The notes: generated by a model from the letters alone, not told the origin. Shown: positions 3,016 through 60,527, counted from the first letter of the stretch. The stretch: 64,000 nucleotides of DNA from Candidatus Omnitrophota bacterium (GCA_029261055.1 JAJDCA010000014.1:5295-69294), one strand, 5' to 3'. Numbers and translations: made by a program.

Positions 3016-3101
3016 CAGGCCTTCGGTAATTCTAAAACAGAAAGTGTGGACATTGTGTGTACTTTATGTTATCCTTTAATTAAGGAAAGGAGCTTAAAGT
3101 T

Positions 3102-3389
3102 ATGGAAAAAAATATTTACAAAGACAGTCGGATTGATCTTCGCATAGAGGTGGATCAAAAGAAATTTTTAGTTTACGCAGCATCTCTTCGTGATATGAAG
3201 CTTTCATCCTTTGTTGTGGCCAGCGCTTTAAAAGAGGCTGAAGAAATTGTGGCAGATAAAATTTCTTTTGCATTACCGGAAAAAAAATGGAAGGCCTTCT
3301 GTGCCGCGCTTGATCGTCCTGCGCGTACGATTCCAAAATTGAAAAAACTTTTTACTGATCCGAGTGTGTTTGATGCGGAAAAAGAATGA
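3102..3389 (+). CDS. DUF1778-type (TacA/AtaR-like) antitoxin
   Basis: 95 aa, preceded by a GGAAAGGAG ribosome-binding site. Overlaps the start of a GNAT toxin gene, the classic TacAT arrangement. Confidence 0.6.
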   Translation: MEKNIYKDSRIDLRIEVDQKKFLVYAASLRDMKLSSFVVASALKEAEEIVADKISFALPEKKWKAFCAALDRPARTIPKLKKLFTDPSVFDAEKE

Positions 3390-3885
3390 TCTTAGTCTTC
3401 CAGTTCTTTTGAAGAAATCGTATTCCGTGACAACATTTGATTGCGGCGTTGAAGTTCTTAACACGTACCTCAAACGATTTGCCTATGTGAATAATCAAAA
3501 CAGTTCATCGCGTACATATGTAGCCGTACGGGGGAAACACGTTGTGGGTTATTACACTGTAACCCCGGGGTCTGTAACAAAGGAAGAGACTCCTCTTCGC
3601 GTTGCCAAGGGGTTAGCCAATCATCCCGTGCCTGTGATTATTTTGGCCCGCCTGGCTGTTGATAAAACAGAACAAGGCGCCGGCTTAGGCAAAGGGCTTC
3701 TGCTGGACGCTTTAATACGTATTATTCGTGCTGCTGATAGTATTGGTGGCCGTGCAATTTTAGTACATGCCAAAGACTCTAAAGCTAAATTTTTCTATAA
3801 AAAATTTGGCTTTGAACCCTCCCCAATTGACCCTTTCCATCTGTATCTTCTTGTAAAAGATGTGAAACGTACTTTAAAATCATAA
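3373..3885 (+). CDS. GNAT-family acetyltransferase toxin (TacT/AtaT/KacT-like)
   Basis: FDCG near the N-terminus and the acetyl-CoA-binding region VHAKDSKAKFFYKKFGFE. ATG at 3373 (the track ORF begins with GTG at 3364) overlaps the antitoxin stop. Confidence 0.7.
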   Translation: MRKKNDLSLPVLLKKSYSVTTFDCGVEVLNTYLKRFAYVNNQNSSSRTYVAVRGKHVVGYYTVTPGSVTKEETPLRVAKGLANHPVPVIILARLAVDKTEQGAGLGKGLLLDALIRIIRAADSIGGRAILVHAKDSKAKFFYKKFGFEPSPIDPFHLYLLVKDVKRTLKS

Positions 3886-4024
3886 AAATTAATATTTTTA
3901 GAAGAATTCTATCATTATTTACTGCAATAGGTTGTGTAGATTTTGGGATTATTTACTTTTTGCTGTTCTTGTAAGTTATTATTCTTCAATGTATTATGAT
4001 TTTTTTAGCTGTGTTTTGGGCCCC

Positions 4025-4055
4025 TTGACACTTATCAAAAATATGTTATCTTTTC
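4025..4055 (+). promoter_or_regulatory. promoter of giant gene 1: TTGACA, 16-nt spacer, extended -10 TGTTATCTT. Contains a 16-mer, AATATGTTATCTTTTC, also found upstream of giant gene 2
   Basis: The motif at 4040-4055 is identical to 13629-13644. Confidence 0.5.
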
Positions 4056-4166
4056 ATTATCTGAACAAGAAAACGTTTTTTCTACAAAATTATGCCAATA
4101 ACCTGCCTTCCTATCGTCAGGCAGCCACGCCACGGATTGGTTGAATTTATCAATATTGGAGGAAAT

Positions 4167-8639: not shown

Positions 8640-8692
8640 ATTGACATTTTGGTAATTTTTTGTAGAATGAGCTATACTTAAGTTGAGGTGAC

Positions 8693-8893
8693 ATGATGAA
8701 ATTTAAAAATATGACAGAAATATTTACGGTATATGAAAATCAGTGGGTTGCGCTAACTGATGACGACAAAATTATTGCTTCTGCAGATACTTTAGAATCT
8801 GTTTTAGAAAAGGCCTCTAAAAAAGGATATGATACTCCCCTCACTGCAAAAATCCCCGACTCTAAACACGAGTTTGTTTTATGTCATCTTTAA
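8693..8893 (+). CDS. small 66-aa protein of the kind found paired with retropepsin-like proteases (possibly DUF5678-like, family name from memory only)
   Basis: Its stop overlaps the start of the downstream protease gene. Ribosome-binding site GAGGTG. Confidence 0.45.
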   Translation: MMKFKNMTEIFTVYENQWVALTDDDKIIASADTLESVLEKASKKGYDTPLTAKIPDSKHEFVLCHL

Positions 8894-9357
8894 AAGTTCC
8901 CTATACGCGGGTTTCCACTAATTTCAATCTTTCAATGTTTAAATTTAAGAATCAACCTCTTTTAAAGGTTGGTCTTTTAGGTCAAAATAATCAATGCATT
9001 AGAGCCACGGCGTATATTGACACAGGGGCTCAAGTATGTCTTTTTAATAAAGATTATGCTACTTTTTTGGGTATAAAAAATTACAAAGATACAGAAGAAA
9101 GTATTCCCTTAACTGGTATTGGTGGGAAAAAACCTGAAAATGTGGCCTATTTTCATAGTCTAACGTTGGTTGTTTTTAAAAATCAAAAAAAATTAGAAAT
9201 AAAGAATGCATATAAAATTCAGACAAAAATAGGTTTTTTGGAAAAAGAAATAGGGTTTGCTGGGATATTAGGTGTTTATGGATTTTTGGATCAATTCTCA
9301 TTTTTAGCTAATATCCCGGAACACTATTTTGAATTAACACCGAAGTTTGTAGCTTAG
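8881..9357 (+). CDS. retropepsin-like (clan AA) aspartic protease
   Basis: YIDTGAQ active-site motif (hydrophobic-hydrophobic-D-T-G-A). ~160 aa, typical of single-domain bacterial retropepsins. Confidence 0.65.
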   Translation: MSSLKVPYTRVSTNFNLSMFKFKNQPLLKVGLLGQNNQCIRATAYIDTGAQVCLFNKDYATFLGIKNYKDTEESIPLTGIGGKKPENVAYFHSLTLVVFKNQKKLEIKNAYKIQTKIGFLEKEIGFAGILGVYGFLDQFSFLANIPEHYFELTPKFVA

Positions 9358-9398
9358 ATTAAGACATTTCCATTGTCAATTTATCGATATTTGCTAGA

Positions 9399-10253
9399 AT
9401 GGCACACATGCAGAAGATATCCGTAGCACACATCCAAAATAAAAAAGTTAAGCAAGAGAAAATCACGATGCTGACGGCGTATGATTATCCGATGGGGGTG
9501 TTGTTGGATAAAGCCGGGGTGGATATGGTGTTGGTGGGGGATTCTGTGGCCAATGTGGTTTTGGGGCTTGAATCGACCACAGAGGTGGGGATGTTTGAGA
9601 TGTTGCATCATGCCAAGGCGGTCCGTCGTGGAGTCAAAGAGGCTCTTTTGATAGGGGACATGCCGTATGAATCTTATCAAACAGCTACACAAGATGCCGT
9701 GGCCAATGCCAAACGTTTTGTGGATGAAGCGGGATGTGATGCGGTGAAATTAGAATGGTTTGACCGTTGTATTGAGGTGGCGGCTGATATTGTTCAGGCG
9801 GGCATTCCGGTGATGGGGCATGTGGGGTTAACACCTCAGACAGCTGAGCAATTAGGGGGGTTTAAAGTTCAGGGGAAGGATGCGGATTCTGCGAAGATTA
9901 TTATCGGGAATGCAAAGGCGTTGGAGGAAGCAGGGTGTTTTAGTATTGTTTTGGAGTGTGTTCCGGATAAAATTGCGCAATTAATTACAAAGCAATTATC
10001 CATTCCAACGATCGGGATTGGGGCTGGCCTTTATTGTGACGGACAGGTTCTGGTGACACACGATCTTTTAGGTTTGTTTGATCGTTTTCGTCCAAAATTT
10101 TCTAAACAGTATGTGGATTTAGGGGCCGCGGTTGTTGACGGTGTAAAGAATTTTTGTCAAGAGGTCCGTCAGGGTAAATTCCCCGATGAAGTGCATAGTT
10201 ATTCGATCAAACAAGAGGAATTATCTAAGATAAACGGAGGTGATCTTGTATGA
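9399..10253 (+). CDS. panB: 3-methyl-2-oxobutanoate hydroxymethyltransferase
   Basis: [18 protein letters not shown] and GHVGLTPQ motifs, all characteristic of PanB. Confidence 0.85.
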
Positions 10254-10588
10254 AAAAATGTCCTTTTTGTGCGGAAGAAATTCAAGATCAAGCTATTAAA
10301 TGTCGGTTTTGTGGTGAATTTTTGAATAAAGATAAAGAAGCACCTGTACATGAAAAACCAAAATGGTTTTTTAAGACATCCAGTTTGGTTGTTGGTTTTT
10401 TATTTGTGGGGCCTTTTATTTTACCCGTGATTTGGTTTAACCCGCGGTTTTCAACGATGAAAAAAATTATTTTTAGTCTCATTGTTTTTATTGTTTCTAT
10501 AATTCTTTTAAAAATACTGATGATGAGTTTCGAATCGATCAATGAATACTATGAAATTTTTCAGGATATGAATCAAGCAAGGAGTTAG
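10250..10588 (+). CDS. zinc-ribbon (CPFC..CRFC) membrane protein, hypothetical
   Basis: N-terminal CxxC-x9-CxxC motif followed by two hydrophobic helices. Confidence 0.45.
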
Positions 10589-10593
10589 TACCT

Positions 10594-11451
10594 ATGGAAA
10601 ATATTGTAGAAAATAAAACACAAGATGTGGGGATTGAATGGCAGAAAGTCGATGGGTTTACGGATATCACATATCATAAAGCCGACGGTATTGCAAAAAT
10701 TACAATTAATCGACCTGAGGTACGCAATGCCTTTCGTCCTTTGACGGTGCACGAAATGTCAGAAGCTTTGGCTGATGCGCGCGATGATGAAGATATTGGG
10801 GCGATTATTTTAACAGGTGAAGGTGAGAAAGCTTTTTGTTCTGGAGGGGATCAAAAAATTCGTGGCGAAGCCGGATACAAAGATCATAAATCTGGAAATA
10901 AAAATCGATTAAATGTGTTGGATTTTCAGCGACAGATGCGTACGTGTCCGAAACCAATTATTGCGATGGTGGCTGGGTATGCTGTGGGTGGCGGTCACGT
11001 TTTGCATTTATTGTGTGATATCACAATTGCTGCCGACAATGCGATCTTTGGACAAACTGGCCCGAAGGTGGGGTCATTTGACGGTGGTTACGGCGCGAGT
11101 TACATGGCACGGATTGTTGGACAAAAGAAGGCGCGAGAAATTTGGTTTTTGTGTCGTCAGTACAGTGCCCAAGAAGCGTTAGATATGGGATTGGTGAACA
11201 AAGTTGTTCCTTATGCCGATTTAGAAAAAGAAACGGTTCAATGGTGCCGTGAAATTTTAGTTAATTCTCCGATGGCCATACGCTGCCTTAAAGCTGCACT
11301 TAATGCTGACTGCGACGGCCAAGCCGGTCTGCAAGAACTCGCGGGTAATGCCACGATGTTATTTTACATGACCGAAGAAGGCCAGGAAGGCCGCAATGCC
11401 TTTGTCGAAAAACGTAAACCGGATTTTAAAAAATTTCCACGAAGACCTTAA
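10594..11451 (+). CDS. menB: 1,4-dihydroxy-2-naphthoyl-CoA synthase (crotonase fold)
   Basis: Enoyl-CoA hydratase fold with FCSGGDQ and [11 protein letters not shown] motifs. Lies in a men gene neighbourhood. Confidence 0.85.
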
Positions 11452-11533
11452 CAGTCATCAGCTATCAGTCCTCAGCCTTCAGTATACTTTATTATTTACT
11501 GATGTCTGAAGTCTGATAGCTGACGGCTAAATA
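11452..11533. terminator. imperfect ~30-bp inverted repeat (long hairpin) downstream of menB
   Basis: GTCATCAGCTATCAGTCCTCAGCCTTCAGTA ... TACTGATGTCTGAAGTCTGATAGCTGAC. Confidence 0.35.
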
Positions 11534-11535
11534 TT

Positions 11536-12417
11536 ATGATTTCATCACTCAAACTTTGGTTTATGGCCATTCGGCCAAAAACATTAACCGCCGCCGTGGC
11601 GCCGGTGTTGATCGGCACGGCGATGGCTTTCGGCGATGGCATTCATCATTTGCCAACCGCTTTTCTTTGTCTTTTCGGCGCTATTCTTATTCAAATCGGT
11701 ACGAATTTGGCCAATGATTATTTCGATTTCAAAAAAGGGACGGACGACGTAGATCGTATCGGGCCGACGCGGGTTACGCAGGCAGGGCTGATTTCACCCG
11801 AAGTGGTGAAATTTGCCTTTATTTTGACATTTGTTCTATCGGCATTGGTGTGTATTGCATTGGTTATCCGTGGTGGTTGGCCGATTGCGGTGATCGGTAT
11901 TCTTTCGATTATTTCCGGCATTCTTTACACGGCAGGGCCGAAACCTTTAGGGTATATGGGGCTGGGAGATGTTTTTGTTTTTGTTTTCTTTGGTCCTGTG
12001 GCAGTCGCTGGAACGTATTATGTGCAATCCTTTGAAATGAATATGGCCGTCATCCTTGCCGGTGTGGCGCCGGGTTTAATTTCCGCCGGAATTTTAACCG
12101 TCAATAATTTGCGAGATATTGTTGGAGATAAAAAATCTGGTAAAAAAACGCTGGCTGTTCGTTTTGGTCGTTCGTTTGCACAGAGTGAATATTTGTTTTC
12201 GATGATTGCCGCCTCGCTGGTGCCGGTATTGATTTATGCTCTCATTCAGGATCATTTACCCATTTTAATGGGTACAGTCGTGAGTCTTTTGGCTATTCCT
12301 ATTATGAAAAAGGTTTTGGTTTCTACGGATGGCCCTGCGCTTAACCTTGCCTTAGCGAAAACCGGAAAATTATTATTAATTTACAGTGTGCTTTTTTCGA
12401 TAGGTTGGATTTTATGA
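11536..12417 (+). CDS. menA: 1,4-dihydroxy-2-naphthoate polyprenyltransferase (UbiA family)
   Basis: Multi-pass membrane protein with the NDYFD Asp-rich prenyltransferase motif. Confidence 0.8.
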   Translation: MISSLKLWFMAIRPKTLTAAVAPVLIGTAMAFGDGIHHLPTAFLCLFGAILIQIGTNLANDYFDFKKGTDDVDRIGPTRVTQAGLISPEVVKFAFILTFVLSALVCIALVIRGGWPIAVIGILSIISGILYTAGPKPLGYMGLGDVFVFVFFGPVAVAGTYYVQSFEMNMAVILAGVAPGLISAGILTVNNLRDIVGDKKSGKKTLAVRFGRSFAQSEYLFSMIAASLVPVLIYALIQDHLPILMGTVVSLLAIPIMKKVLVSTDGPALNLALAKTGKLLLIYSVLFSIGWIL

Positions 12418-48289: not shown

Positions 48290-49744
48290 ATGTATTTGGA
48301 GGCATTATTAAAGGGTATTTATCCGCATGAATTAAATGAGGCTTATCGACAGACGGATATTGCAGGCATTTATTGTGATTCACGGCGCGTTAAGACAAAT
48401 AGTCTTTTTGTGGCGACGAAAGGATCATCGTCTGATGGGGCCAATTTTATTAATCAAGCGATTGATAATGGAGCTTCTGTAGTCGTTTCGCATAAGCCAA
48501 GAGATAAATATTGTATTGAAAAAAAAGTTTGTTATCTCACCGTTGAAGATGCGTCTCAGTTTTTACGTGATGTCGCTAAACGGTTTTATGGGCAACCTTC
48601 TGAAAAAGTCTGCACAATCGGTATTACCGGAACTAATGGTAAGACCACCGTCGCTTATCTTATTGAATCTATTTTACATCAGGCCAAAAAAATATGTGGT
48701 GTTATTGGAACGGTGAATCACCGTATTGGGTCAAGAATCTTTCCATCCAAAAATACAACGCCGGGATTTCTTGATAATCAGGAGTTTTTAGCTTCTTTAG
48801 TTGAGCAAAATATCGATTATTGCGTTATGGAGGTGTCTTCGCATGCATTAGATCAGGGGCGTGTGGATGGTATTGATTTTAAACAAGCCGTATTTACAAA
48901 TTTGTCGCATGAACATTTGGATTACCATGAAAATCATGAAAATTATTTTGAAGCCAAATCTAAACTGTTTACCGGGTTGTCTTCCACGTCTGTAGCGGCT
49001 GTTAATAATGATGATCCTTACGGGCAGAGGCTTATTCCACAAATTTCTTCCGGTATTAAGACGTATGGCATTGGCCGTCCAGCTGATATTATGGCCAAAG
49101 ATATTCAATTACATATTAACGGATCCCAGTTTCAATTATGCACCCCTGACGGGAATGTGCCTGTCCATACAGCGTTGATGGGGATGTATAATATTTATAA
49201 TATTCTCGCGGCTGTAAGTGTTTGTTTGAACGAAGGGATCCCTTTAAACGAAATTAAAGAAGGGATAGAGAAATTGTCTTGTGTGCCTGGCCGTTTGGAG
49301 AGAGTGGATTGCGGGCAGGATTTCGCTATTTTTATCGATTATGCCCACACAGAAGATGCTCTTGTAAATGTTTTGCAGGCGATTAAAGATATTTCTAAAG
49401 GCAGGCTCATTTTAGTTTTTGGATGTGGTGGTGATCGAGATAAAACAAAACGACCTTTGATGGGTCGTGTGGCCGGTCAGTTAGCAGATATATCCATTGT
49501 CACCAGCGATAATCCCCGTAATGAGGATCCACAGAGTATTATTGATCAAGTAGTAGAGGGGTTTGAAGGGGATAATTACGTTTCTATTCTAGATCGCAAA
49601 GAAGCGATACGTAAAGCTCTAGGGATGGCTCTGCAAGATGATGTTGTTCTTCTGGCTGGTAAAGGACATGAGGATTATCAAATCATTCGGGGAAAGAAAG
49701 GGGCCTTTAATGAACGGCTGGTTATTGAAGAAATATTAAAGTAA
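48290..49744 (+). CDS. murE: UDP-N-acetylmuramoyl-L-alanyl-D-glutamate--2,6-diaminopimelate ligase
   Basis: GITGTNGKTT P-loop and the DNPR motif of meso-DAP-adding MurE. Confidence 0.85.
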   Translation: MYLEALLKGIYPHELNEAYRQTDIAGIYCDSRRVKTNSLFVATKGSSSDGANFINQAIDNGASVVVSHKPRDKYCIEKKVCYLTVEDASQFLRDVAKRFYGQPSEKVCTIGITGTNGKTTVAYLIESILHQAKKICGVIGTVNHRIGSRIFPSKNTTPGFLDNQEFLASLVEQNIDYCVMEVSSHALDQGRVDGIDFKQAVFTNLSHEHLDYHENHENYFEAKSKLFTGLSSTSVAAVNNDDPYGQRLIPQISSGIKTYGIGRPADIMAKDIQLHINGSQFQLCTPDGNVPVHTALMGMYNIYNILAAVSVCLNEGIPLNEIKEGIEKLSCVPGRLERVDCGQDFAIFIDYAHTEDALVNVLQAIKDISKGRLILVFGCGGDRDKTKRPLMGRVAGQLADISIVTSDNPRNEDPQSIIDQVVEGFEGDNYVSILDRKEAIRKALGMALQDDVVLLAGKGHEDYQIIRGKKGAFNERLVIEEILK

Positions 49745-49853
49745 GTTAACCCAACTTTACAAGAATTGATGGTTTTTTGGACTAATCAATAAATGGCAAA
49801 AATTTAAAGACGTACGGAAGAGCCTGAGGCTTGGAAATGAGAAAGAGGAATAT

Positions 49854-51863
49854 ATGACGATTAATTTTAAAGAACGAGCCAATTTTATCTGGAGTATTGC
49901 TGATCTCCTGCGCGGTGATTATAAGCAGTCAGAATATGGCCGGGTGATTTTGCCTTTAACAGTTTTACGGCGGCTTGATTGCGTGCTTGATCCAACCAAA
50001 GCGAAAGTTTTAGATGCCCTTCCTAAAGTTAAGAAGTTTTCTCCAACAGCCGCAGAGGAAGTGCTGAAACGTAAAGCAAAATTGTCCTTTTATAATAAAA
50101 GTAAATTTGATTTCCAAAGGCTAGCGGCGGATCCCAATGATATTGCCGCTAATTTACGTAATTACCTGAACGGGTTTTCCAGGAATGCACGTACCATTCT
50201 GGAGCATTTTAATTTTATTGAGCATATTGAACGTTTGGATAAATCTAATCTCCTTTACAAAATTGTCAAACGCTTTGCGGAAATCGATCTTCACCCGGAT
50301 AAAGTTAAGAATATTGAAATGGGTTATATTTTTGAGGAGCTTATCAGAAAATTTGCTGAAATATCCAATGAGACAGCCGGGGAGCATTTTACACCACGGG
50401 AAGTTATTCGTCTGATGGTCAACGTTTTATTTTTAAATGACAAAGACGTTTTGACTAAAAAAGGGATTGTTAAAACCATTTATGATCCGGCCTGCGGAAC
50501 AGGCGGGATGCTTTCGACGGCAGAGGAATATTTACTTGAGTTAAACCCTGACGCAGATTTACGTGTGTTTGGTCAGGAAATTAATCCTGAAACTTATGCT
50601 GTTTGCAATTCTGATATTCTTATTAAAGGGCAGAATGCCGATCAAATTAAATTTGGCAATTCATTTACTCAAGACGGGTTAAAAGATGAAAAGTTTGACT
50701 ACATGCTAAGCAATCCTCCGTTTGGTGTCGAGTGGAAAAAGGTTGAGGCCGAAATTAGGAAAGAACATGACAAACTTGGGTTTACCGGCCGGTTCGGTGC
50801 AGGTTTGCCGCGTATTAGTGATGGTTCATTTTTGTTTTTACAGCATATGATTTCTAAAATGCGCTCTGCAAATGGCGGAGCGCGTTTAGGCATTGTTTTT
50901 AACGGTTCACCGCTTTTTTCAGGTGGTGCCGGCAGCGGCGAGAGTGAAATTCGAAGATGGATTATTGAAAACGATATGCTCGAAGCGATTATTGCTCTGC
51001 CTAATCAACTTTTTTATAACACAGGCATTGCGACGTATATTTGGATTGTGACAAATCGTAAAGAAAAAAAGCGTAAAGGAAAGATTCAATTGATCAACGC
51101 CGCGTCTTTTTTTCAGAAGATGTCGAGAAGCCTTGGCAATAAACGTAATGAAATCGGAGACAAACACATTGCAGAGATTACGCGGATTTATGGGAATTTT
51201 AAAAAAGGAGAGTTCTGCAAAATATTCGATAATAACTATTTCGGTTACACACGGGTGACCGTTGAGCGTCCGCTTAAGTTGAATTTTATGGCAATCCCAG
51301 AAAGAATCGCACGACTGGAGAATGAATCGGTATTTAAGAATTTAGCGAAATCAAAGAAAAAGGGTAATAAGGCATTAACAGAAAATGAAACAGGAGAAAA
51401 ATATCAAAAATTGATTAAAGATGCACTTGGATCCTTGAATGCCAAAAAAATATATAAAAACCGTGAGAAATTTATTGATGATTTGAAATCAGCGTTTGAG
51501 AAAAATGGGGATAATGTCAAGTCTCCGATTATCAAAATGATCATTAAAGCCCTCAGCGAGCGGGATGAAACAGCGGACGTATGTCTTGATGCCAAAGGCA
51601 ATTCCGAACCCGATTCAGAACAACGCGATTATGAAAACGTGCCTTTGCAGGATGATATTGAAAAATATTTTAAGCGGGAAGTTCTACCGCATGTTCCGGA
51701 CGCGTGGATGGATCGAAGCAAAGATAAAGTCGGATACGAAATCAATTTTACTAAGGAATTTTATAAATACAAACCTCTGCGAAGTCTTGAAGAAATTCGT
51801 AAGGATATTCTGGCTCTTGAGAAAGAGACAGAAGGGCTTTTGGAGGAAGTATTACATGGATAA
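49854..51863 (+). CDS. hsdM: Type I restriction-modification system methyltransferase subunit
   Basis: 669 aa with NPPFG (motif IV) and DPACGTGGML (motif I). Confidence 0.9.
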   Translation: MTINFKERANFIWSIADLLRGDYKQSEYGRVILPLTVLRRLDCVLDPTKAKVLDALPKVKKFSPTAAEEVLKRKAKLSFYNKSKFDFQRLAADPNDIAANLRNYLNGFSRNARTILEHFNFIEHIERLDKSNLLYKIVKRFAEIDLHPDKVKNIEMGYIFEELIRKFAEISNETAGEHFTPREVIRLMVNVLFLNDKDVLTKKGIVKTIYDPACGTGGMLSTAEEYLLELNPDADLRVFGQEINPETYAVCNSDILIKGQNADQIKFGNSFTQDGLKDEKFDYMLSNPPFGVEWKKVEAEIRKEHDKLGFTGRFGAGLPRISDGSFLFLQHMISKMRSANGGARLGIVFNGSPLFSGGAGSGESEIRRWIIENDMLEAIIALPNQLFYNTGIATYIWIVTNRKEKKRKGKIQLINAASFFQKMSRSLGNKRNEIGDKHIAEITRIYGNFKKGEFCKIFDNNYFGYTRVTVERPLKLNFMAIPERIARLENESVFKNLAKSKKKGNKALTENETGEKYQKLIKDALGSLNAKKIYKNREKFIDDLKSAFEKNGDNVKSPIIKMIIKALSERDETADVCLDAKGNSEPDSEQRDYENVPLQDDIEKYFKREVLPHVPDAWMDRSKDKVGYEINFTKEFYKYKPLRSLEEIRKDILALEKETEGLLEEVLHG

Positions 51864-52494
51864 CGGGAGCGGTAAACAACAAAATAAAAATTGGTTTGGT
51901 CAAAATTGGATAGCTTTAATTGCGCTTTTAATCTCAATTTTCTCGGTTTTTTATACCCATTTGAATTATGGCCTTCAGACTAAGTTATCTCATTTGCAGA
52001 TAAAACCAATGATAAAAACGTATTTTGATTTGCCTGTTGATAAAAATCCTATTTTTGTTGTGGCTAATGAAGGTAGTGTCCCAGCAGTATCTCTTAGCTG
52101 TGGTTATTATGTTTTCACATTTAATAAGAATCAGAAAAAAGTTGTGGTGGCAGGTAAGGCAGGACGAGTTTTTAGCCCAGGAGTGATATATAAAGAACTT
52201 TTTAACCCAACAGACTACGAATCAATGGAGTTGGTCGGAGTATCATCTGCCGAGAATACTCTTGTAATTTATCAATTTGATTTAATTTATTTTCGTAAAC
52301 AAGATATGGATGAATATTCAAGAAGGGAATATTATTTTGTAGATAATGGGCGTTTATTATCGCATTCGGAATATCGTTTGGATCCATTGTATCGTGATGT
52401 AATGTATCAGATTTCTCAGACAATTATTCCTGATTCTCAGTGGGATTCGGGTGCTTTGAGACAATATTTAGAAAATCAATCTGAATTTAAATGA
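51856..52494 (+). CDS. membrane-anchored hypothetical protein embedded between hsdM and hsdS (212 aa)
   Basis: ATG at 51856 overlaps the hsdM stop. One N-terminal transmembrane helix. No recognisable motif. Confidence 0.5.
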   Translation: MDNGSGKQQNKNWFGQNWIALIALLISIFSVFYTHLNYGLQTKLSHLQIKPMIKTYFDLPVDKNPIFVVANEGSVPAVSLSCGYYVFTFNKNQKKVVVAGKAGRVFSPGVIYKELFNPTDYESMELVGVSSAENTLVIYQFDLIYFRKQDMDEYSRREYYFVDNGRLLSHSEYRLDPLYRDVMYQISQTIIPDSQWDSGALRQYLENQSEFK

Positions 52495-52498
52495 AAGT

Positions 52499-53818
52499 AT
52501 GAATAGATATTTAGAATATAAAGATTCAGGGATAGAATGGGTTGGTAAAATTCCAAAGGATTGGGCATTGAAACGTCTCAAGTTTGTTTCTAAGATTAAT
52601 CCTTCGAGATCATTAAATATTTCAGAAAATACTCAGTGTGCCTTTATCCCAATGGCGGCGATGAATACTGATGGAAATTTTGATCAATCTGAGCGCCATC
52701 CGCTATCAAAACTCAAAAGTGGTTTTACGTATTTTGTTAAAGATGATGTTATCTTTGCAAAAATAACCCCGTGTTTTGAAAATGGTAAAGGGGCTTTGCT
52801 AGCTAATTTGGAAAGTGAAATTGGGTTTGGTTCGACAGAATTTCATGTATTACGACCTGGAAAAGGATGGACATTATCAGCATTTCTTTATTATATTACA
52901 ATATCAGGGCAATTTCGGCGAATCGGTGAAGCTTTCATGCAGGGAGTAGCTGGACAAAAGCGAGTAACAAATGATTTTGTTGAAAATTATGTTGTGGCAG
53001 TTCCTTCGGTTGATGAACAAAAAATTATTACCGATTACTTGGATTGTAAGACGGCGCAGATTGATGACTTGATCGCCAAAAAAAAACGGATGATTGAGCT
53101 GCTTAAAGAGGAGCGGATGGCTGTAATCAATCAGGCGGTGACAAAGGGGCTTGATCCAAACGTCGAGATGAAGGATTCCGGAATTGAATGGCTTGGCAAA
53201 ATTCCGAAGCATTGGAAATTAAAGAAACTTAAATATGTGGTTAGGATAAACAAAGACTCATTATCAGAAACAGTTAGAGAAAATTATGCGTTTAATTACA
53301 TTGACATTGGTAGTGTTGACTTAGAGGAAGGGTTTAATCTGGGGGAGAAAATTAATTTTGTCGATGCACCCTCAAGAGCCAGGCGGATTGTTAGCAAGGG
53401 GGATACAATCATATCCACTGTTAGGACATATTTAAAAGCAATTGCATATATCGAGAATGATGTTAGAGATATGATAGTTTCAACAGGTTTTGCAGTAGTG
53501 TGTCCTGGTAGTGAAATAGAATCGGAATTTCTTTATTATGTTTTAAGAAGTGAGAAAATTATTGATCGCATTTGTGCCATTTCTGTGGGGGTAAGTTATC
53601 CTGCGATTAATGCATCAGATTTATCAAATACAGTTATTTGGTATCCAAAAGAGAAGGAAGAGCAAAAACGAATTACTCAACAACTTGATAGGGAACTTTT
53701 AAAGTCGAAAAGGATAATTCAAAAACTGTATAGTGAAATAGAATTATTCCAAGAATACCGCACCTCACTTATTTCTGAAGTGGTGACGGGGAAGATTGAT
53801 GTTCGGGGAGGAAGTTAA
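52499..53818 (+). CDS. hsdS: Type I restriction-modification specificity subunit (two target-recognition domains)
   Basis: Duplicated architecture: GIEWVGKIPKDWALKRLKFV and GIEWLGKIPKHWKLKKLKYV start the two target-recognition domains, with the central conserved coiled region in between. Confidence 0.85.
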   Translation: MNRYLEYKDSGIEWVGKIPKDWALKRLKFVSKINPSRSLNISENTQCAFIPMAAMNTDGNFDQSERHPLSKLKSGFTYFVKDDVIFAKITPCFENGKGALLANLESEIGFGSTEFHVLRPGKGWTLSAFLYYITISGQFRRIGEAFMQGVAGQKRVTNDFVENYVVAVPSVDEQKIITDYLDCKTAQIDDLIAKKKRMIELLKEERMAVINQAVTKGLDPNVEMKDSGIEWLGKIPKHWKLKKLKYVVRINKDSLSETVRENYAFNYIDIGSVDLEEGFNLGEKINFVDAPSRARRIVSKGDTIISTVRTYLKAIAYIENDVRDMIVSTGFAVVCPGSEIESEFLYYVLRSEKIIDRICAISVGVSYPAINASDLSNTVIWYPKEKEEQKRITQQLDRELLKSKRIIQKLYSEIELFQEYRTSLISEVVTGKIDVRGGS

Positions 53819-54550
53819 ATGTTTAGCGAAAATAGATTTTATAATATTTATTGTGATGAAAGCTGTCATTTAGAGAATGATCATCAGAAAGTAATGACCC
53901 TTGGCGCACTTTGGTGTCTTAATGATGTTAAAAGGGATATGTTTTCTAAGATAAGAGAGATAAAGCGAGAACATGGCTTACCAAATCATTTTGAGATCAA
54001 ATGGACGAAGGTATCTCCTGCAAAGATAGATTTTTATATTGATATTTTAAAGACTTTTTTTGACGAATCAGATTTGCATTTTAGGGCGGTGATTATCAAA
54101 AACAAAGAGCATCTAGATCATACAAAGTTTGCAGGGCAGGATCATGACGTTTGGTACTACAAAATGTTTTTTTGTTTATTGAATGTTATTTTAGAGCCGC
54201 ATGCTTGTTATAAAATTTATCTTGATAAAAAAGACACTAGGGGTGCTGATAAAATTATCAAATTACATGATGTTTTGTGTAACCATCGATATGATTTTTC
54301 AAAAGAAATAATTCAGAATGTGCAGTCAGTTCATTCTCATGAGATAGAACTTCTTCAAGTGGCCGATCTTTTAATAGGAGCAGTTGGATATGTCAATAGA
54401 GGGATTAATACTAGCGAGGCAAAGTCTAAATTAATTTCGTACATCCGGGAACGTTCAGGGTATAGTTTATTAGCAACGACTCTTTTAAAAGAGGAAAAAA
54501 TGAATTTATTTTTTTGGGAGCCTAAGAAAGGTTTAGATAATGGCGAGTGA
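53819..54550 (+). CDS. DUF3800-family protein
   Basis: IYCDESCH near the N-terminus and LLQVADLLIGAVGY near the C-terminus match the DUF3800 pattern. Confidence 0.6.
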   Translation: MFSENRFYNIYCDESCHLENDHQKVMTLGALWCLNDVKRDMFSKIREIKREHGLPNHFEIKWTKVSPAKIDFYIDILKTFFDESDLHFRAVIIKNKEHLDHTKFAGQDHDVWYYKMFFCLLNVILEPHACYKIYLDKKDTRGADKIIKLHDVLCNHRYDFSKEIIQNVQSVHSHEIELLQVADLLIGAVGYVNRGINTSEAKSKLISYIRERSGYSLLATTLLKEEKMNLFFWEPKKGLDNGE

Positions 54551-55094
54551 AATTGATTGGCTGCCAGAGCTAGTAATTTTTGAAAGCTATGATAACAATT
54601 GGAATAAATACTTAGAAGCTTTGTATGGATTTTACAAAATTGATTTTTTGGACAATAAGCCTAAATATAAAAATAAGGATGTTGGTGTTAAAAGACTCCC
54701 TATGTATGAGGGAAAAGAATCTAATTTTTGGCATTTGATTCAAGAGAGTTACCAGACTAAGGAGGAAGAAGATCGTATTCCTGATTTGCGAAGATGTGAA
54801 AGAATACGATGGCCGAAACCAATTATCGAAAATGTAAAAAATTCAAGGGTGTTAGTTTGGGAAAATACAAGGCACAATAAGGCTGGAATTGAGAATAATG
54901 TATGTTTTTGGTTTAAAAATAAAGAATATTTAGTTGTTTTACGAAAGAGAAAAAAGTATTTCTTGCTTTGGACTGCTTATCCGGTGATAAAAGAACATAC
55001 GAAAAGAAAATTGTGGAAGGAATATGAGGCGTATAAAAAAGCTGGGGACGCCATTTCTGACGACCCCGTTACTCCTTCTACACATGGTAGATGA
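54540..55094 (+). CDS. hypothetical protein whose start overlaps the DUF3800 gene (184 aa)
   Basis: 11-nt overlap implies translational coupling. Basic and aromatic-rich, unrecognised. Confidence 0.45.
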   Translation: MASEIDWLPELVIFESYDNNWNKYLEALYGFYKIDFLDNKPKYKNKDVGVKRLPMYEGKESNFWHLIQESYQTKEEEDRIPDLRRCERIRWPKPIIENVKNSRVLVWENTRHNKAGIENNVCFWFKNKEYLVVLRKRKKYFLLWTAYPVIKEHTKRKLWKEYEAYKKAGDAISDDPVTPSTHGR

Positions 55095-55155
55095 GCTATT
55101 TAAAATATAACATACAAAATTATGAAAAACAAAGGAAAATTAGTTCAAAAAATAA

Positions 55156-55338
55156 ATGATAGAATCTAACCACAATCAAAGCGTTAAGATTGAAATAAAA
55201 ACACCTGCGGAGGAAAAGTCCTTGCAGGCTGTGGATTGTGTAAGCTGGGCCATATTCAGGAAACTGGAGTATAGGGATGATACGTATTACAATACCATCA
55301 GGGAAAAGATCATTGAAGAAAACCCTTTGTTTCCCTAA
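55156..55338 (+). pseudogene. possible C-terminal remnant of a second DUF3800-like gene
   Basis: The 60-aa ORF contains SLQAVDCVSWAIFRKLE, resembling the DUF3800 C-terminal LQ.AD....A motif. No N-terminal part is present. Confidence 0.3.
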
Positions 55339-55520
55339 GAATGATAAAGCCTCATTCGCTATTTACGAGGAACCCTGCGGAACCCCACGGATGAGGACTT
55401 ACTTATCTAGATCGACCGGGAATCCCCAGTCCTTTTTATATCTAATGTAAGTATATGCTATAGGTTGACATTTATCAACTAGAAAGCTATACCTTTTGTG
55501 TGGGTAAAAATCGAGCTAAA

Positions 55521-58500
55521 ATGAGATCAATAACCAATGAAAAAGCCTTTGAAGAATTAATTGAGCAGTGCCTTTTGAAGAGTGGCGGTTATGTAAAAGG
55601 AGATCCTGCGAAGTTCAATCGTGGATTGGCTATGGATACGGTTGTGCTTCTTCAGTTTATTCAGGCCACACAGAAAAATGTTTGGGATGAGCTTGTAAAA
55701 ATTCACGGAATAGATGCTGAACCAAAGTTTCTTTATCGACTTAATCAGGAACTTGAAACGAGAGGTATGTTAGATTGTTTGCGCAACGGAATCATTGATT
55801 ACGGTAAGAAATTTAAATTGGCCTTTTTTAAGCCAGTCAGCGGGCTTAACCCTGAAACGCAGGAATTATATGGCAAGAATGTTCTTACGGTGACAAGGCA
55901 AGTGCGTTATTCCACAAAGGATGAAAGTTCAATTGATATGCTTCTTAGCCTTAACGGTCTTCCTATGGCCACTATTGAACTTAAGAATGCTTTTACCGGA
56001 CAAAATGTTAATAATGCCAAGCAGCAATATAAATATGACAGGAATGCGCAAGAGCTTTTATTCCAATTCAAGAAGCGTGCGCTTGTCCATTTTGCGGTGG
56101 ATACGGATGAGGTTTATATGACCACCCGGCTGCAGGGAAGCAAAACACGGTATTTGCCTTTTAACCGTGGTGTCAATAAAGGGGCTGGTAATCCTATTAT
56201 TGAGGGGAAGCATAAGACCCATTATTTATGGGAGGAAGTTTTTGTTAAAGATAGTTGGATGGATATTTTGGCGAGATTTGTTCATCTTCAGATTGAAGAT
56301 TTCTTGATTGAGGGTAAAAAAGTTAAAAAGGAAAAGATGATATTCCCGCGGTACCATCAGCTGGATGTTGTAAGAAAGATTGCGAGTCATTCTTTAGCGA
56401 ATGGAGCTGGAGAAAATTATCTCATTCAGCATAGTGCCGGAAGCGGTAAAAGTAACTCTATTGCTTGGCTTTCCTATCATTTAGCCAGTCTTCATGGTAA
56501 GACGGACGAAAGAGTATTTGATTCAGTGATTGTTGTGACAGACCGGCTTGTGCTTGATCAGCAGCTTCAGGATACGATTTATCAATTTGAACATAAACGG
56601 GGCGTAGTTGAAAGAATTGATAAGGATTCTCAACAATTGGCAGATGCATTATCCGGCGGAACAAATATTATTATCACGACACTTCAGAAATTTCCGTTTG
56701 TCCTCGATAAAGTTAAAGAACTCCCTAAGCGGAATTATGCTGTTATTGTGGATGAGGCGCATAGCTCTCAGGGAGGAGAAATGGCTAGTGACCTTAAAAA
56801 AATTTTGATGCTTAGAGATGAAGAAGATGTTGAAGATGGTCTTAGGGAAATGATGCATGCTCGTGGTCCTCAATCGAATGTAAGTTATTTTGCGTTTACG
56901 GCCACACCTAAAGCAAAAACGATTGAGATGTTTGGACAAAAAGACGATGATGGTAAGCCACAACCTTTTCATCTTTATTCGATGCGGCAGGCAATTGAGG
57001 AAGGATTTATTTTAGATGTCTTGCAGAATTATATGTCCTATAAAATATTCTTTCAGTTATCCAAGAAAATTGAGGAAGACCCTGCCGTCAATAAGAAAAA
57101 AGCCGCCCAGGCGATTGCGCGATTTTTAACGCTTCATCCGCATAATCTTGCACAAAAAACAGAGATCATTATTGAACATTTTAGGCAAGTGACCATGAGA
57201 AAAATTGGAGGTAAAGCCAAGGCAATGGTGGTTACTGCTTCGCGGGAGCATGTTGTGCGTTATAAACAGGGATTTGATAGATATCTTAAGGAAAAGGGAT
57301 ATTCAGGCATTAAAGCATTAGTTGCGTTTTCTGGGAAAGTGCTATTAGATGGGATCCCACCAGAATATACAGAGGTAAAGATGAATAATTGTGGGGAAAA
57401 GGAGCTCCCTGAGAAGTTTAGCACATCTGAATATCAGTTATTGCTGGTGGCGGAAAAGTATCAAACCGGGTTTGACCAACCTTTACTGCATACAATGTAT
57501 GTCGACAAACGGCTTGATGGTGTTAAAGCTGTTCAGGCCTTGAGCCGTTTAAATAGAATGCATCCGGGAAAAGACGATACTTTTGTGCTTGATTTTGTGA
57601 ACCAGCGAGAAGATATTCTTAACGCGTTTCAACCCTATTATGAACGAACAACATTGGTCGATACAACCGACCCTAATAAATTGTACGACCTTAAAAATAA
57701 AATTGATACGTTTAAAGTCATCGACTACGGGGACGTTGATGTGTTTTCTTCTGTGTTTTTTAAAGATAAAAAATTGCACAACAAGACCGAGCACGCCCAG
57801 TTAAATGCCTTGGTCGATAAAGCTGTTGAACGCTACGAAGCGATTGAGAAAGAAGAAGACAGAGAGGATCTGGCTAATACTTGCCGAGTCTTTACTCGTT
57901 TGTATGCCTTTTTAGCACAGATTATGCCGTTTAGTGATGTTGAACTTGAGAAGTTTTACGCATACATACGATTATTTCTTAAGAAACTTCCTAAAAGAAC
58001 GAATGATGGTCGCTTTACACTCGATGATGAGGTTGCTTTGGAATATTATCGATTACAAAAAATTGCAGAGGGAAAGATTGAATTACAAAAAGGCGTAGAT
58101 GCCGGGCTTAAGCCTGTTAATGAAGCGGGGACAAAAAAAGATAAAGAAGAATATAAGCGCTTATCAGAAATTATTAAAATTATTAATGATCACTTTGGAA
58201 CCGATTTTACGGAGGCCGATAAATTATTTTTTGACCAAATTGAGGAGGAGCTTGTTTTAGATGAAAAGTTGGGACTGCAGGCTAAAAACAATACGATTGA
58301 GAATTTTAAGTATGGATTTGAGGATATTTTTGTTAGCAAGCTTGTCGATCGGATGGATCAGAACGAGGATCTTTTTAATAAGATCATGGAGGACAAAGCC
58401 TTCGCTGCTGTTGTGAAAGATTATTTGCTAAAGAAGGTGTATCAAAGATTAAATGTGCGTAGTGGGGTCGTTGAAGAAGCTGAGTCATTTTTGCGGGACT

Positions 58501-58982
58501 TGGTTTCAGATGAGGCAATAACACCTGCACAGCGTAAAACGCATGTTCGTGTTTGTTCTCTTGAAGCGATGGCGACATCGTTTCAGGAACAGCGAAGACC
58601 TGAGGTTATTGGTTGGAAAGAAATGAAGGGTGTTTTTAAGTTAAATAAAGATATGTTTATTGCTCAAGTTGTCGGCAAATCTATGGAACCGACACTTAAA
58701 GATGGCAGTTGGTGTTTATTTCGTCCGGATCAGGGGGGATCCCGAAATAATAAAATCGTTTTGGTTGAGTCGGAGTATATTACTGATTCTGAAACAATGA
58801 AGAATTATACGATTAAGCGATATTTTAGTAAAAAGACGGACGGCGAGGATGAAGACAGCTTCCGGCATACAAAAATTATATTAAAGCCGGATAATAAAGA
58901 ATTTCCGGATATTATATTACCCGAAGAAACTAGGGAAGATGAATTTCACGTTGTTGCGGAGTTTGTGAAGGTGGTGGGTTAG
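55521..58982 (+). CDS. hsdR: Type I restriction endonuclease subunit HsdR fused to a C-terminal S24 (LexA/UmuD/CI-like) peptidase domain
   Basis: SF2 helicase motifs (SAGSGKS Walker A, DEAH, FTATP). The last ~125 aa carry VVGKSMEPTLKDGSWCLF (catalytic Ser motif), YTIKRYF (catalytic Lys) and LKPDNKEFPDIIL. Confidence 0.8.
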   Translation: MRSITNEKAFEELIEQCLLKSGGYVKGDPAKFNRGLAMDTVVLLQFIQATQKNVWDELVKIHGIDAEPKFLYRLNQELETRGMLDCLRNGIIDYGKKFKLAFFKPVSGLNPETQELYGKNVLTVTRQVRYSTKDESSIDMLLSLNGLPMATIELKNAFTGQNVNNAKQQYKYDRNAQELLFQFKKRALVHFAVDTDEVYMTTRLQGSKTRYLPFNRGVNKGAGNPIIEGKHKTHYLWEEVFVKDSWMDILARFVHLQIEDFLIEGKKVKKEKMIFPRYHQLDVVRKIASHSLANGAGENYLIQHSAGSGKSNSIAWLSYHLASLHGKTDERVFDSVIVVTDRLVLDQQLQDTIYQFEHKRGVVERIDKDSQQLADALSGGTNIIITTLQKFPFVLDKVKELPKRNYAVIVDEAHSSQGGEMASDLKKILMLRDEEDVEDGLREMMHARGPQSNVSYFAFTATPKAKTIEMFGQKDDDGKPQPFHLYSMRQAIEEGFILDVLQNYMSYKIFFQLSKKIEEDPAVNKKKAAQAIARFLTLHPHNLAQKTEIIIEHFRQVTMRKIGGKAKAMVVTASREHVVRYKQGFDRYLKEKGYSGIKALVAFSGKVLLDGIPPEYTEVKMNNCGEKELPEKFSTSEYQLLLVAEKYQTGFDQPLLHTMYVDKRLDGVKAVQALSRLNRMHPGKDDTFVLDFVNQREDILNAFQPYYERTTLVDTTDPNKLYDLKNKIDTFKVIDYGDVDVFSSVFFKDKKLHNKTEHAQLNALVDKAVERYEAIEKEEDREDLANTCRVFTRLYAFLAQIMPFSDVELEKFYAYIRLFLKKLPKRTNDGRFTLDDEVALEYYRLQKIAEGKIELQKGVDAGLKPVNEAGTKKDKEEYKRLSEIIKIINDHFGTDFTEADKLFFDQIEEELVLDEKLGLQAKNNTIENFKYGFEDIFVSKLVDRMDQNEDLFNKIMEDKAFAAVVKDYLLKKVYQRLNVRSGVVEEAESFLRDLVSDEAITPAQRKTHVRVCSLEAMATSFQEQRRPEVIGWKEMKGVFKLNKDMFIAQVVGKSMEPTLKDGSWCLFRPDQGGSRNNKIVLVESEYITDSETMKNYTIKRYFSKKTDGEDEDSFRHTKIILKPDNKEFPDIILPEETREDEFHVVAEFVKVVG

Positions 58983-59159
58983 AAATGATATATGACTCGA
59001 ATTGATAACCAAACAAGTTCGGCATTTTTCTAGATAGGGACAAATTGTCCCCAGATAGAAATGCCAGAAAAGAAACCAAAAAAGAGTTGGCAGAAGCGTT
59101 GTTTCGAAACAGAATTTTGTAGATAAAGATGATCAATTAGAACTGGAAAATCAAAAATA

Positions 59160-60527
59160 ATGATACACGCACACATTAATGACATTGTAAAATGCACTAA
59201 AGGGAAGCTTGTTAAGGGGAATGAGGAGGTCCAGGTTAGAGGTGTATCCATTGATTCGCGGACTGTAAAGAAGGGGAACCTTTTTATTGCGATCAAAGGA
59301 GTGAACTTTGACGGTCATCGGTTTGTTGCGCAAGCGATTAAAAAAGGGGCGGCGGCGATTATTGTTTCAAAGCGAAAGGTCGTGCCTTGTGACGTTCCCA
59401 CTATTTTGGTCAATGATACAACGCAAGCTTTGGGTGAAGTGGCGCGATTTCATCGGTGTCGGTTTTCGATTCCGCTTATTGCTATTACCGGGAGTACTGG
59501 TAAAACCACCACAAAGGATATGATTGCGGCGGTCCTTAAAGTTAAGTTTAAAGTATTAAAGAATATCAAAACAGAAAATAATCAGTTCGGGGTTCCGTTA
59601 ACGCTTCTGAAGCTGAATGCCTCTTATGATGTGGTTGTGTTGGAATTAGGGACGAACCAGCCGGGCGATATTCCGTGGCTTGCCTATGTTGCCCAGCCCA
59701 CCGTGGCTGTTTTTACAAATATCGGGGAATCACATCTTCAAGGGCTCAAGACGCCGCAGGGGGTGTTTCGTGAGAAATATCAGTTAATTAAGCATACGGC
59801 TGAAGATGGTACGGTAATTTTTAATGGCGATGACATTTATTTAAAAACTATTACAAATAAAAAATTATCGCAGACAAAAATAACGTTTAGTATTCAAGAA
59901 AAATCTGATTACCAGGCTATGAAAATCAAAAAGAGCGGTAATTATAAGTTATGTTTTCAAACGTACCGGAATATTTTTTCTATAGTCAGTCCGGCTGAGC
60001 ATAATATTTATAATGCATTAGCCGCAATGTGTTGTGGCCGGTTCTTTAAAATTAGTTTTGATGATATTAAGGGTAGGATTTCTAGATTTAAGGGGGCTGA
60101 TGGGCGTCAAATTGTTAAAAAGTGTAAGAATTTTTGGTTGATTGATGATACGTACAATTCTAATCCTGTATCTTTTAAAAGTGCTTTAAAGACCTTGAGT
60201 TCTTTTGAAACAAAAGGAAGGAAAATTTTAGTGTTTGGAGATATGATGGAATTAGGTTCGCAAGCGCAGGATTTACATCAGCGGATGGGAAAATTGATTA
60301 GACAGTCAAGCATTGATGCTATTTTTACATTTGGTCAATATTCTGATCAGATAACTAAAGAAATTACAAAAAATTCAAAGGCTATGCAAGCAAGGCATTG
60401 TAAGACTCAAAACAAATTGCAGCAGCATTTACAGCATTTTTGTCAAAAGGGTGATGTTATCCTTATTAAAGGTTCCCGCAGCATGAAAATGGAAAGGGTT
60501 GTTGATTTTTTATGTTCTATTACTTAG
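59160..60527 (+). CDS. murF: UDP-N-acetylmuramoyl-tripeptide--D-alanyl-D-alanine ligase
   Basis: ITGSTGKTTTK P-loop and Mur ligase domain order. Confidence 0.85.
   Translation: MIHAHINDIVKCTKGKLVKGNEEVQVRGVSIDSRTVKKGNLFIAIKGVNFDGHRFVAQAIKKGAAAIIVSKRKVVPCDVPTILVNDTTQALGEVARFHRCRFSIPLIAITGSTGKTTTKDMIAAVLKVKFKVLKNIKTENNQFGVPLTLLKLNASYDVVVLELGTNQPGDIPWLAYVAQPTVAVFTNIGESHLQGLKTPQGVFREKYQLIKHTAEDGTVIFNGDDIYLKTITNKKLSQTKITFSIQEKSDYQAMKIKKSGNYKLCFQTYRNIFSIVSPAEHNIYNALAAMCCGRFFKISFDDIKGRISRFKGADGRQIVKKCKNFWLIDDTYNSNPVSFKSALKTLSSFETKGRKILVFGDMMELGSQAQDLHQRMGKLIRQSSIDAIFTFGQYSDQITKEITKNSKAMQARHCKTQNKLQQHLQHFCQKGDVILIKGSRSMKMERVVDFLCSIT

Follow-up and report, generated by a model that had tools for sequence, protein, structure and literature searches.

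DUF3800 is a widespread RNase H-like domain that occurs with retrons, among the neighbours of Cas12a2 and Cas12a3, and beside at least 11 orphan RNA motifs. Here we describe a DUF3800 gene, its partner gene and a predicted antisense small RNA gene that lie within a type I restriction-modification (RM) operon of Candidatus Omnitrophota bacterium (GCA_029261055.1, JAJDCA010000014.1:5295-69294); this stretch of 64,000 nucleotides is referred to as the window. The closest catalogued relative is the PADLOC candidate PDC-M04. The PDC-M candidates originate from Payne et al. 2024 (bioRxiv 10.1101/2024.01.29.577857), where PDC-M04 is one of 145 untested 'guilt-by-embedding' candidates. The supplement of that study lists PDC-M04 as the cassette FAM_00014>>FAM_00043 with a count of 679, apparently RefSeq instances, and in the literature searched the name 'PDC-M04' occurs in this supplement only and in no paper text. 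The other close relative is the rlfA-rlfB pair of phage P1. The P1 and P7 genes were named rlf ('replication-linked function') and rap ('replication associated protein'), and the P1 genes are described as 'possibly associated with lytic replication', a label taken from their position only. A CRISPR interference screen found P1 rlfA and rlfB to be non-essential, and in P1-like plasmids rlfAB lies within a hypervariable, low-GC cargo region.

Several other described systems share part of this design. PrrC of EcoprrI is an anticodon nuclease, a single protein that is masked by the RM proteins and not by an RNA. PrrC is latent, of the RNase type and active in abortive infection, and the cargo proposed for the window would resemble it in this as well as in its location among type I hsd genes. 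It has been cited as almost exclusively RM-embedded, but it has no sequence or fold relation to the PDC-M04 pair. In type I toxin-antitoxin systems such as TxpA/RatA and BsrG/SR4, a convergent antisense RNA overlaps the 3' end of the toxin message, while ToxIN represents type III. The window locus is similar to the former in that a predicted small RNA with a promoter of its own would overlap the 3' end of a putative toxin mRNA; however, its proteins, of 243 and 184 residues, are not small hydrophobic peptides. It differs from ToxIN in that its RNA is single-copy and lies downstream in convergent orientation, rather than being a tandem-repeat antitoxin upstream, and a second, weak tandem copy is found only in a Geobacillus phage.

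Type VII retrons have DUF3800 either fused to the reverse transcriptase or encoded by a linked gene, and TPR-DUF3800 proteins are accessory to Cas12a2/Cas12a3 loci. In these defence settings, too, an RNase H-like domain accompanies a non-coding nucleic acid of its own, but the window locus has no reverse transcriptase, CRISPR array or TPR domain. The QxxD motif is without its Q in the retron DUF3800, whereas the window subfamily retains both Q180 and D183. Weinberg et al. 2017 (PMC5737381) reported at least 11 RNA motifs, DUF3800-I to -XI, with no role assigned. They too are structured RNAs beside a DUF3800 gene, in either orientation and often ended by a terminator, and they share a UAA trinucleotide that here lies within GUAACG; in contrast to them, the window RNA has no Rfam match and a protein partner is always present.

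A predicted convergent small RNA gene at the 3' end of the protein pair

The original prediction, made from the sequence of this stretch, had proposed an uncharacterised two-gene defence system consisting of the DUF3800 gene and its overlapping partner. Neither half of this description can be kept: the pair is already catalogued as PADLOC PDC-M04, of which P1 RlfA and RlfB are also members, and a conserved antisense small RNA gene is an obligatory third part. The gene was recognized in an all-against-all comparison of the DNA 3' of the partner gene, in which the first 60-100 nucleotides after the gene are 85-100% identical between distant taxa. On inspection, the conserved block begins with a hairpin whose sequence varies, after which comes GTTACTCCTTCTACACATGGYAGATGAGCT. 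In minus-strand orientation, the family architecture is TTGAC, 17 nucleotides, TAtAaT, 6 nucleotides, AGCUCAUCUACCAUGUGUAGAAGGAGUAACG, a 10-bp GC-rich stem and AGCUUUUUU. In the window, the RNA gene covers the last ~19 codons of the partner and the first ~40 nucleotides of the 'gap' behind it on the opposite strand. The predicted RNA would run, 5' to 3', from the domain AGCUCAUCUACCAUGUGUAGAAGGAGUAACG (core at 55068-55097) through a terminator stem (55044-55067) into a U-tract, and is fully complementary to the 3' end of the partner open reading frame (ORF) and operon mRNA.

The 30-nucleotide core is found once per locus in 76 of 81 sequences; the window copy at 55068-55097 has zero mismatches and is the single match in the window, where chance predicts none. 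A genome scan that started from the proteins provided 80 loci, the closest 80 of 272 relatives found, and in 78 of these a covariance model detects exactly one antisense copy, the two misses being contig ends. In the window the same model has a sole match, at 55022-55097 on the minus strand, with 86 bits and an E-value of 3e-25. The 31-nucleotide 5' domain is on average 92% identical across phyla, against 65% for the adjacent partner coding DNA.

The alignment also carries the marks of a conserved fold. RNAalifold gives a 5' stem-loop and a terminator stem, with compensatory double changes at 12 of the 19 pairs; 98.4% of the cells are paired as compared with 37-57% when the partners are slid, and 106 cells are doubly changed as compared with 20 in shuffles. 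The alignment contains 231 G.U cells and only 9 A.C cells, which identifies the minus strand as the folded one. For the window copy, the minimum free energy fold is the consensus fold (-24.8 kcal/mol, z -3.8). Upstream, the predicted -10 element is TATATT (55104-55109), preceded by TGT as in an extended -10, and the -35 element TTGTTT (55127-55132) is weak; in the family -10 element, A2 (kept in 69 of 73 sequences) and T6 (66 of 73) are the best-conserved positions. A promoter scan offers a second candidate, TTGAAC/CATAAT at 55148-55119, and the generic promoter and terminator scan of the locus was uninformative by itself. Taken together, the computations show a convergent gene for a predicted RNA of about 60-65 nucleotides, with a predicted sigma-70 promoter of its own and a predicted intrinsic terminator. 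Residues ~166-184 of the partner are a read-through of this opposite-strand gene, a feature limited to the window and a few relatives, and this read-through accounts for the low-confidence partner tail '...VTPSTHGR'.

Other identities for the block were considered and set aside. Rfam 15, which includes DUF3800-I and DUF3800-IX, returned no match at E<=1 in positions 49000-60000 of the window or in 11 canonical loci, which rules out a known RNA family, and a plus-strand RNA or 3' untranslated region is ruled out by the G.U and A.C counts together with the orientation of the promoter. By inspection, the core does not fit the GTTRRRY of an integron attC-like site, nor does its loop have the U33 or the 7-nucleotide anticodon loop of a tRNA mimic. 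A second RNA in the gap at 55339-55465 was also rejected; the fold there is no better than that of shuffles (z -1.0) and the gap has no similarity to other loci. The RNA sequence is absent from the literature searched, although the supplement of Weinberg 2017, the P1 genome paper (PMC523184) and a 2026 DUF3800 preprint could still describe it. As far as the searched databases and literature show, the obligatory RNA partner and its phage orphan copies (see below) are apparently undescribed.

The proteins, and the RNA with and without them

The three predicted ORFs are present, and the motifs YCDESCH, LQVADLLIGA and LQAVDCVSWAIF are found in their translations. The DUF3800 assignment held in a profile search: the 243-residue protein reaches 61.9 bits against Pfam DUF3800 (PF12686; cutoff 21, E=1.5e-16), and its residues 7-237 match the PADLOC PDC-M04A model PDLC04353 with an E-value of 2e-91. 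The partner matches the PDC-M04B model PDLC04357 (E 9.1e-60) and 11 more PDC-M04B models. With both proteins matching, adjacent on one strand and embedded in a type I RM locus like the source context of the candidate, the pair is assigned by sequence to the known, uncharacterised candidate family PDC-M04; the family is, however, defined by two proteins, and the antisense RNA gene lies outside this definition. P1 RlfA and RlfB match the PDC-M04 models with E-values of 1e-95 and 1.3e-51, respectively. P1 RlfA is annotated as a DUF3800 protein, the window partner is homologous to P1 RlfB and P7 RapB (33-36% identity, E about 1e-19), and the P1 genes abut by an ATGA overlap. The RNA gene is likewise found downstream on the opposite strand in P1 (49.5 bits) and P7 (50.5 bits). 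The P1 version differs in the linker of the RNA, which has diverged to CGAUCG from UAACG, and in its setting behind repL under the C1 operator, outside any RM operon.

The DUF3800 protein is structurally similar to RNase HII/H2A, and D13-E14, D136, D139, E175, Q180 and D183 are invariant among 47 homologues. Computation shows an RNase HII/PIWI-class fold in which the adjacent Asp-Glu is intact and two further Asp are invariant. The protein is therefore a predicted nuclease by its modelled fold, which fits the published view of DUF3800 as an RNase H-fold nuclease. D13, E14, D136/D139 and D183 are plausible equivalents of the four catalytic carboxylates of RNase HII, while the sequence itself has no match to RNase HII in Pfam or among PDB sequences. 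For the partner, computation shows a strongly conserved, Arg/His/Glu-rich alpha+beta protein; its structure model (predicted local distance difference test score 86.3, predicted template modelling score 0.80) has an N-terminal helical part and a C-terminal unit of a helix and four strands. This model has no significant Foldseek match in the PDB, sequence searches retrieved no solved-structure relatives for either protein, and 52 partner homologues gave only noise against Pfam at E<=10, leaving the partner outside any Pfam family. Judged by their models, both proteins would be soluble and enzyme-like.

The partner has >400 relatives in many phyla and the DUF3800 subfamily >6,000. The expectation that the pair would be conserved in other genomes is borne out, well above what chance would give: in all 77 testable loci, from many phyla, the partner gene is immediately preceded on its own strand by the DUF3800 gene, usually with a 4-nucleotide overlap. 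The proposed embedding in type I RM loci is frequent: the upstream neighbour is most often Methylase_S (17 of 75 loci), HsdR-type domains are most common downstream, and a type I RM gene lies within 6 kb in at least 26 of 79 loci. Genes for GmrSD, TIR, PLD and SNF2 proteins are also among the neighbours. Some copies have neighbours of another kind. In L063 (2681-3057), a PDC-M04 locus lies ~2 kb from a transfer-messenger RNA (tmRNA) gene, and in L049 (10199-10264) one lies near an int-alpA RNA; such tmRNA and int-alpA neighbours are marks of integrated mobile elements.

The RNA is present in each of the 78 protein-selected loci that could be tested. Scans using only the core pattern retrieved 125 loci, 5 viral (IMG/VR) and 120 metagenomic, which were sorted with profile hidden Markov models for both proteins. 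Both genes are present in 61 of these and a full partner on a short contig in 14, so that 75 encode a partner of essentially full length. Gene fragments only are left in 19; 28 are orphans, including all 5 viral contigs, and 3 have no room to judge. The orphan RNAs retain the complete RNA architecture. Some have their own promoter, others begin 0-4 nucleotides past an apparent tRNA 3' end on the same strand, and still others lie just upstream of tRNA genes. Among cultured phages, the RNA is found in 16 SPbeta/phi3T-like Bacillus phages and in Geobacillus, Mammaliicoccus, Vibrio and Streptococcus phages. The dependence is thus one-sided: the proteins need the RNA, which can itself do without them, as for an antidote. 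The phage-borne copies recall the escape from ToxIN by pseudo-ToxI.

Individual phage copies differ in their surroundings. The 132-kb viral contig L083 (IMGVR_UViG_3300043432_000484) carries 31 tRNA genes and a tmRNA gene on one strand (1298-12081), with the orphan RNA (9844-9921) between tRNA-Lys and tRNA-Asn. Geobacillus phage vB_GthS_PT9.1 (L210) has two tandem copies, at 2372-2446 (44.8 bits) and 2501-2575 (weak, 19.5 bits), flanked by genes for an ArpU regulator and a DNA methyltransferase; this arrangement is reminiscent of type III systems with their repetitive RNA antitoxins. In Vibrio phage 1.084.O (L209), the orphan RNA (3001-3074) lies within a non-coding stretch of ~1 kb (2470-3535), which also contains a tRNA-like 3' end at about 2633-2668, uncalled by ARAGORN, and may hold further structured RNAs.

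The surrounding operon and its cargo

From 49.8 to 59.0 kb the window is a single plus-strand block that runs from hsdM through hsdR (Table 1), and the flanking hsdS and hsdR genes named in the original prediction are confirmed by their Pfam domains. All three type I RM genes are recognized on one strand by Pfam and NCBIfam; hsdR, at 195.7 bits, is below the TIGR00348 cutoff of 284.55 and has an extra S24 domain. The start of orf212 overlaps the end of hsdM by 8 nucleotides, the TAA stop of hsdS directly abuts the ATG of the DUF3800 gene, and the 11-nucleotide overlap claimed for the pair is real (partner ATG at 54540, DUF3800 TGA at 54548-54550). By computation, translational coupling extends from hsdM through orf212, hsdS and the DUF3800 gene to the partner gene. 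Transcription of hsdR may be independent of this operon, from a predicted promoter downstream of the convergent RNA gene.

Table 1. Features of the RM operon and its cargo, in window coordinates.
Feature	Position	Strand	Basis
hsdM, type I RM methylase at the head of the operon	49854-51863	+	Pfam N6_Mtase 2.3e-63, HsdM_N 7.2e-29
orf212, rare 212-residue ORF with a hydrophobic N-terminal segment	51856-52494	+	ATG at 51856 behind GGAGG
hsdS, specificity subunit	52499-53818	+	Pfam Methylase_S 4.7e-22, two stretches
DUF3800 gene (PDC-M04A, RlfA-like), predicted nuclease	53819-54550	+	Pfam and PADLOC matches, fold
Partner gene (PDC-M04B, RlfB-like), 184 residues	54540-55094	+	PADLOC match
Predicted small RNA, ~60-65 nucleotides	55035-55097	-	Covariance model, covariation, fold
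Predicted promoter of the small RNA	55104-55132	-	Alignment with family consensus
60-residue ORF, DUF3800 C-terminal remnant	55156-55338	+	phmmer
Likely own promoter of hsdR, TTGACA/17 nucleotides/TATACC	55466-55494	+	Read by eye from the sequence
hsdR with C-terminal Peptidase_S24	55500-58982; alternative ATG 55521	+	HSDR_N, SWI2_SNF2, ResIII, T1R_D3-like

The 60-residue ORF had been read as a DUF3800 C-terminus, and is indeed a genuine remnant, of a subfamily different from that of the resident protein. It matches the C-terminal ~57 residues of proteins of 200-215 residues (best E=2.7e-19 by phmmer among 1.84e9 representatives; 175 matches at E<=1e-3), and 7 of the 8 matches scanned, namely all those 200-225 residues long, are PF12686 members. 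BLASTP finds no similarity between the ORF and the resident DUF3800 protein, which rules out a local duplicate and, with the C-terminal matches, identifies the remnant as that of another DUF3800 subfamily. A sister RM locus, L212, has the same design of hsdM, rare ORF, hsdS, DUF3800 gene, partner, RNA and hsdR-S24, with an extra 200-residue gene after hsdS, no remnant and a gap of only 68 nucleotides between partner and hsdR. These differences show that cargo turnover in this RM lineage is real, as had been suspected for this spot.

The second embedded gene, orf212, has no family in Pfam, PADLOC, NCBIfam or PHROG. It has only 3 relatives among 5.8e9 proteins, one of them at the equivalent position in L212, and is a separate and much rarer cargo gene outside PDC-M04. 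HsdR residues 1043-1155 match Peptidase_S24 (LexA/UmuD-like, E 2.8e-8), a fusion repeated in L212; the gene call for hsdR in the source contig (L001) is 1153 residues. Type I restriction subunits do not usually have such a domain, which could tie restriction to self-cleavage or the sensing of DNA damage. Within 48290-60527, the whole RM-plus-cargo block splits murE (48290-49744) from murF (59160-60527) in the dcw cell-division and cell-wall cluster, and the L212 version adjoins a tyrosine integrase and follows the enolase and divIC genes. By its insertion into dcw here and its integrase-side location in L212, the block behaves as a mobile island. Just past the 3' end of the window (L001, 20320-20555), an AbiEii-family gene and a 264-residue ORF follow ftsW, forming a second defence-type insertion in the dcw cluster of this organism.

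Possible functions of the three-part module

The explanation that we put first, tentatively and somewhat short of an even chance, is a three-part, toxin-antitoxin-like abortive-infection module of the PDC-M04/P1 RlfAB family that is carried within a type I RM operon and whose RNA would act as antidote to, or regulator of, the nuclease pair. It builds on features described above, namely the anatomy of the module, its folds, its RNA gene and the asymmetry of dependence, and would give this locus, and the family as a whole, a defence function. The RNA would keep a toxic nuclease pair silent through pairing with the 3' end of the mRNA, through binding to the proteins or in both ways; that its 5' domain hardly varies between phyla favours protein recognition over antisense pairing alone. 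The trigger would be an infection that stops transcription in the host or puts the RM complex out of action, after which the short RNA would no longer be replenished. The unrestrained proteins would then cleave nucleic acid, the substrate being RNA or the RNA in hybrids, and the infection would be aborted. The module would in this way form a second line behind restriction, comparable to PrrC in EcoprrI, and phages with an orphan RNA would supply the antidote and escape. It is possible, if doubtful, that the ~60-65-nucleotide RNA is the obligatory antidote throughout RlfAB/PDC-M04, P1 included, and that the orphans in SPbeta/phi3T-like, Vibrio, Geobacillus and tRNA-array jumbo phages are counter-defence.

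Several points weigh against such a module. PDC-M04 is catalogued as a candidate, and either the DUF3800 protein or the partner may be the effector. The known systems with RNA antitoxins are unlike it: type I toxins are usually small peptides, and the antitoxins of type III lie upstream of their toxins as tandem repeats. The U-tract is modest and stands 3 nucleotides away from the terminator stem, the phage orphan copies could have another role, and the protein-selected sample is limited to the closest relatives, as stated above.

The RNA might instead be a required cofactor. Together with the RNase H/PIWI-like DUF3800 protein, and perhaps also with the partner, it would form a ribonucleoprotein for sensing or targeting nucleic acid. 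We regard this as unlikely, although it would account for the association of DUF3800 genes with at least 11 unrelated structured RNA motifs, for a fold resembling PIWI/Argonaute and RNase H, whose substrates are guide-target or RNA-DNA duplexes, and for the fusion or linkage of DUF3800 to retron reverse transcriptases and its linkage to Cas12a2/Cas12a3 loci. An invariant 5' domain would also fit specific protein binding, and the proteins never occur without the RNA. However, an invariant RNA cannot serve as a programmable guide, and both the phage orphans and the decayed RNA-only cassettes are easier to explain by an antidote. A selfish addiction (toxin-antitoxin) cassette would have an identical anatomy; it would serve to maintain the RM island, P1 plasmid or another mobile element and would not act directly against phages, an idea that we consider quite improbable. 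The carriage of the module by the P1 plasmid-prophage and by an integrase-linked RM island, and the copies near tmRNA or int-alpA sites typical of mobile elements, agree with it, but RM embedding and neighbourhoods rich in GmrSD, TIR, PLD and SNF2 genes fit defence, and the orphan RNAs carried by phages point to a conflict with them. A module could serve both addiction and abortive infection.

The remaining two explanations have very little probability. The block might contain no RNA gene and be an operon terminator or 3'-untranslated-region element, or else mark the end or attachment site of mobile cassette DNA; it does lie exactly at the 3' boundary of the two-gene cassette, contains a GC-rich hairpin, and some orphans abut tRNA genes, which are classic integration sites. 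What makes this very unlikely is that a predicted sigma-70 promoter points into the block from the other side at a fixed spacing, that the excess of G.U over A.C cells reflects selection on a minus-strand RNA fold, and that a U-rich tract follows the hairpin on the minus strand; moreover, the orphans retain the promoter or directly follow a same-strand tRNA 3' end, and most copies have no direct repeats or integrase. RNase H processes the RNA primer of ColE1-type replicons, and the P1/P7 pair follows kilA-repL behind a C1-controlled operator, so that a replication role in the sense of the P1/P7 names can be imagined, for example an RNase H-like enzyme that processes a primer or R-loop from the small RNA. 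This is the least probable of the explanations: the annotation is positional and worded as 'possibly' and 'putative', rlfA and rlfB are non-essential for P1 lytic growth and often replaced in P1-like plasmids, and most copies are chromosomal, in RM or defence neighbourhoods without replicon genes.

Protein-only defence catalogues can overlook an essential non-coding component. If the pair always travels with one highly conserved antisense RNA, PDC-M04 would be a three-part RNA-protein system, and one amenable to study in Escherichia coli with P1. Should the abortive-infection reading be true, the logic of the system would be simple, with the RNA as antidote and the phage-borne copies as escape, and it would provide a first functional handle on the frequent pairing of DUF3800 nucleases with dedicated structured RNAs.

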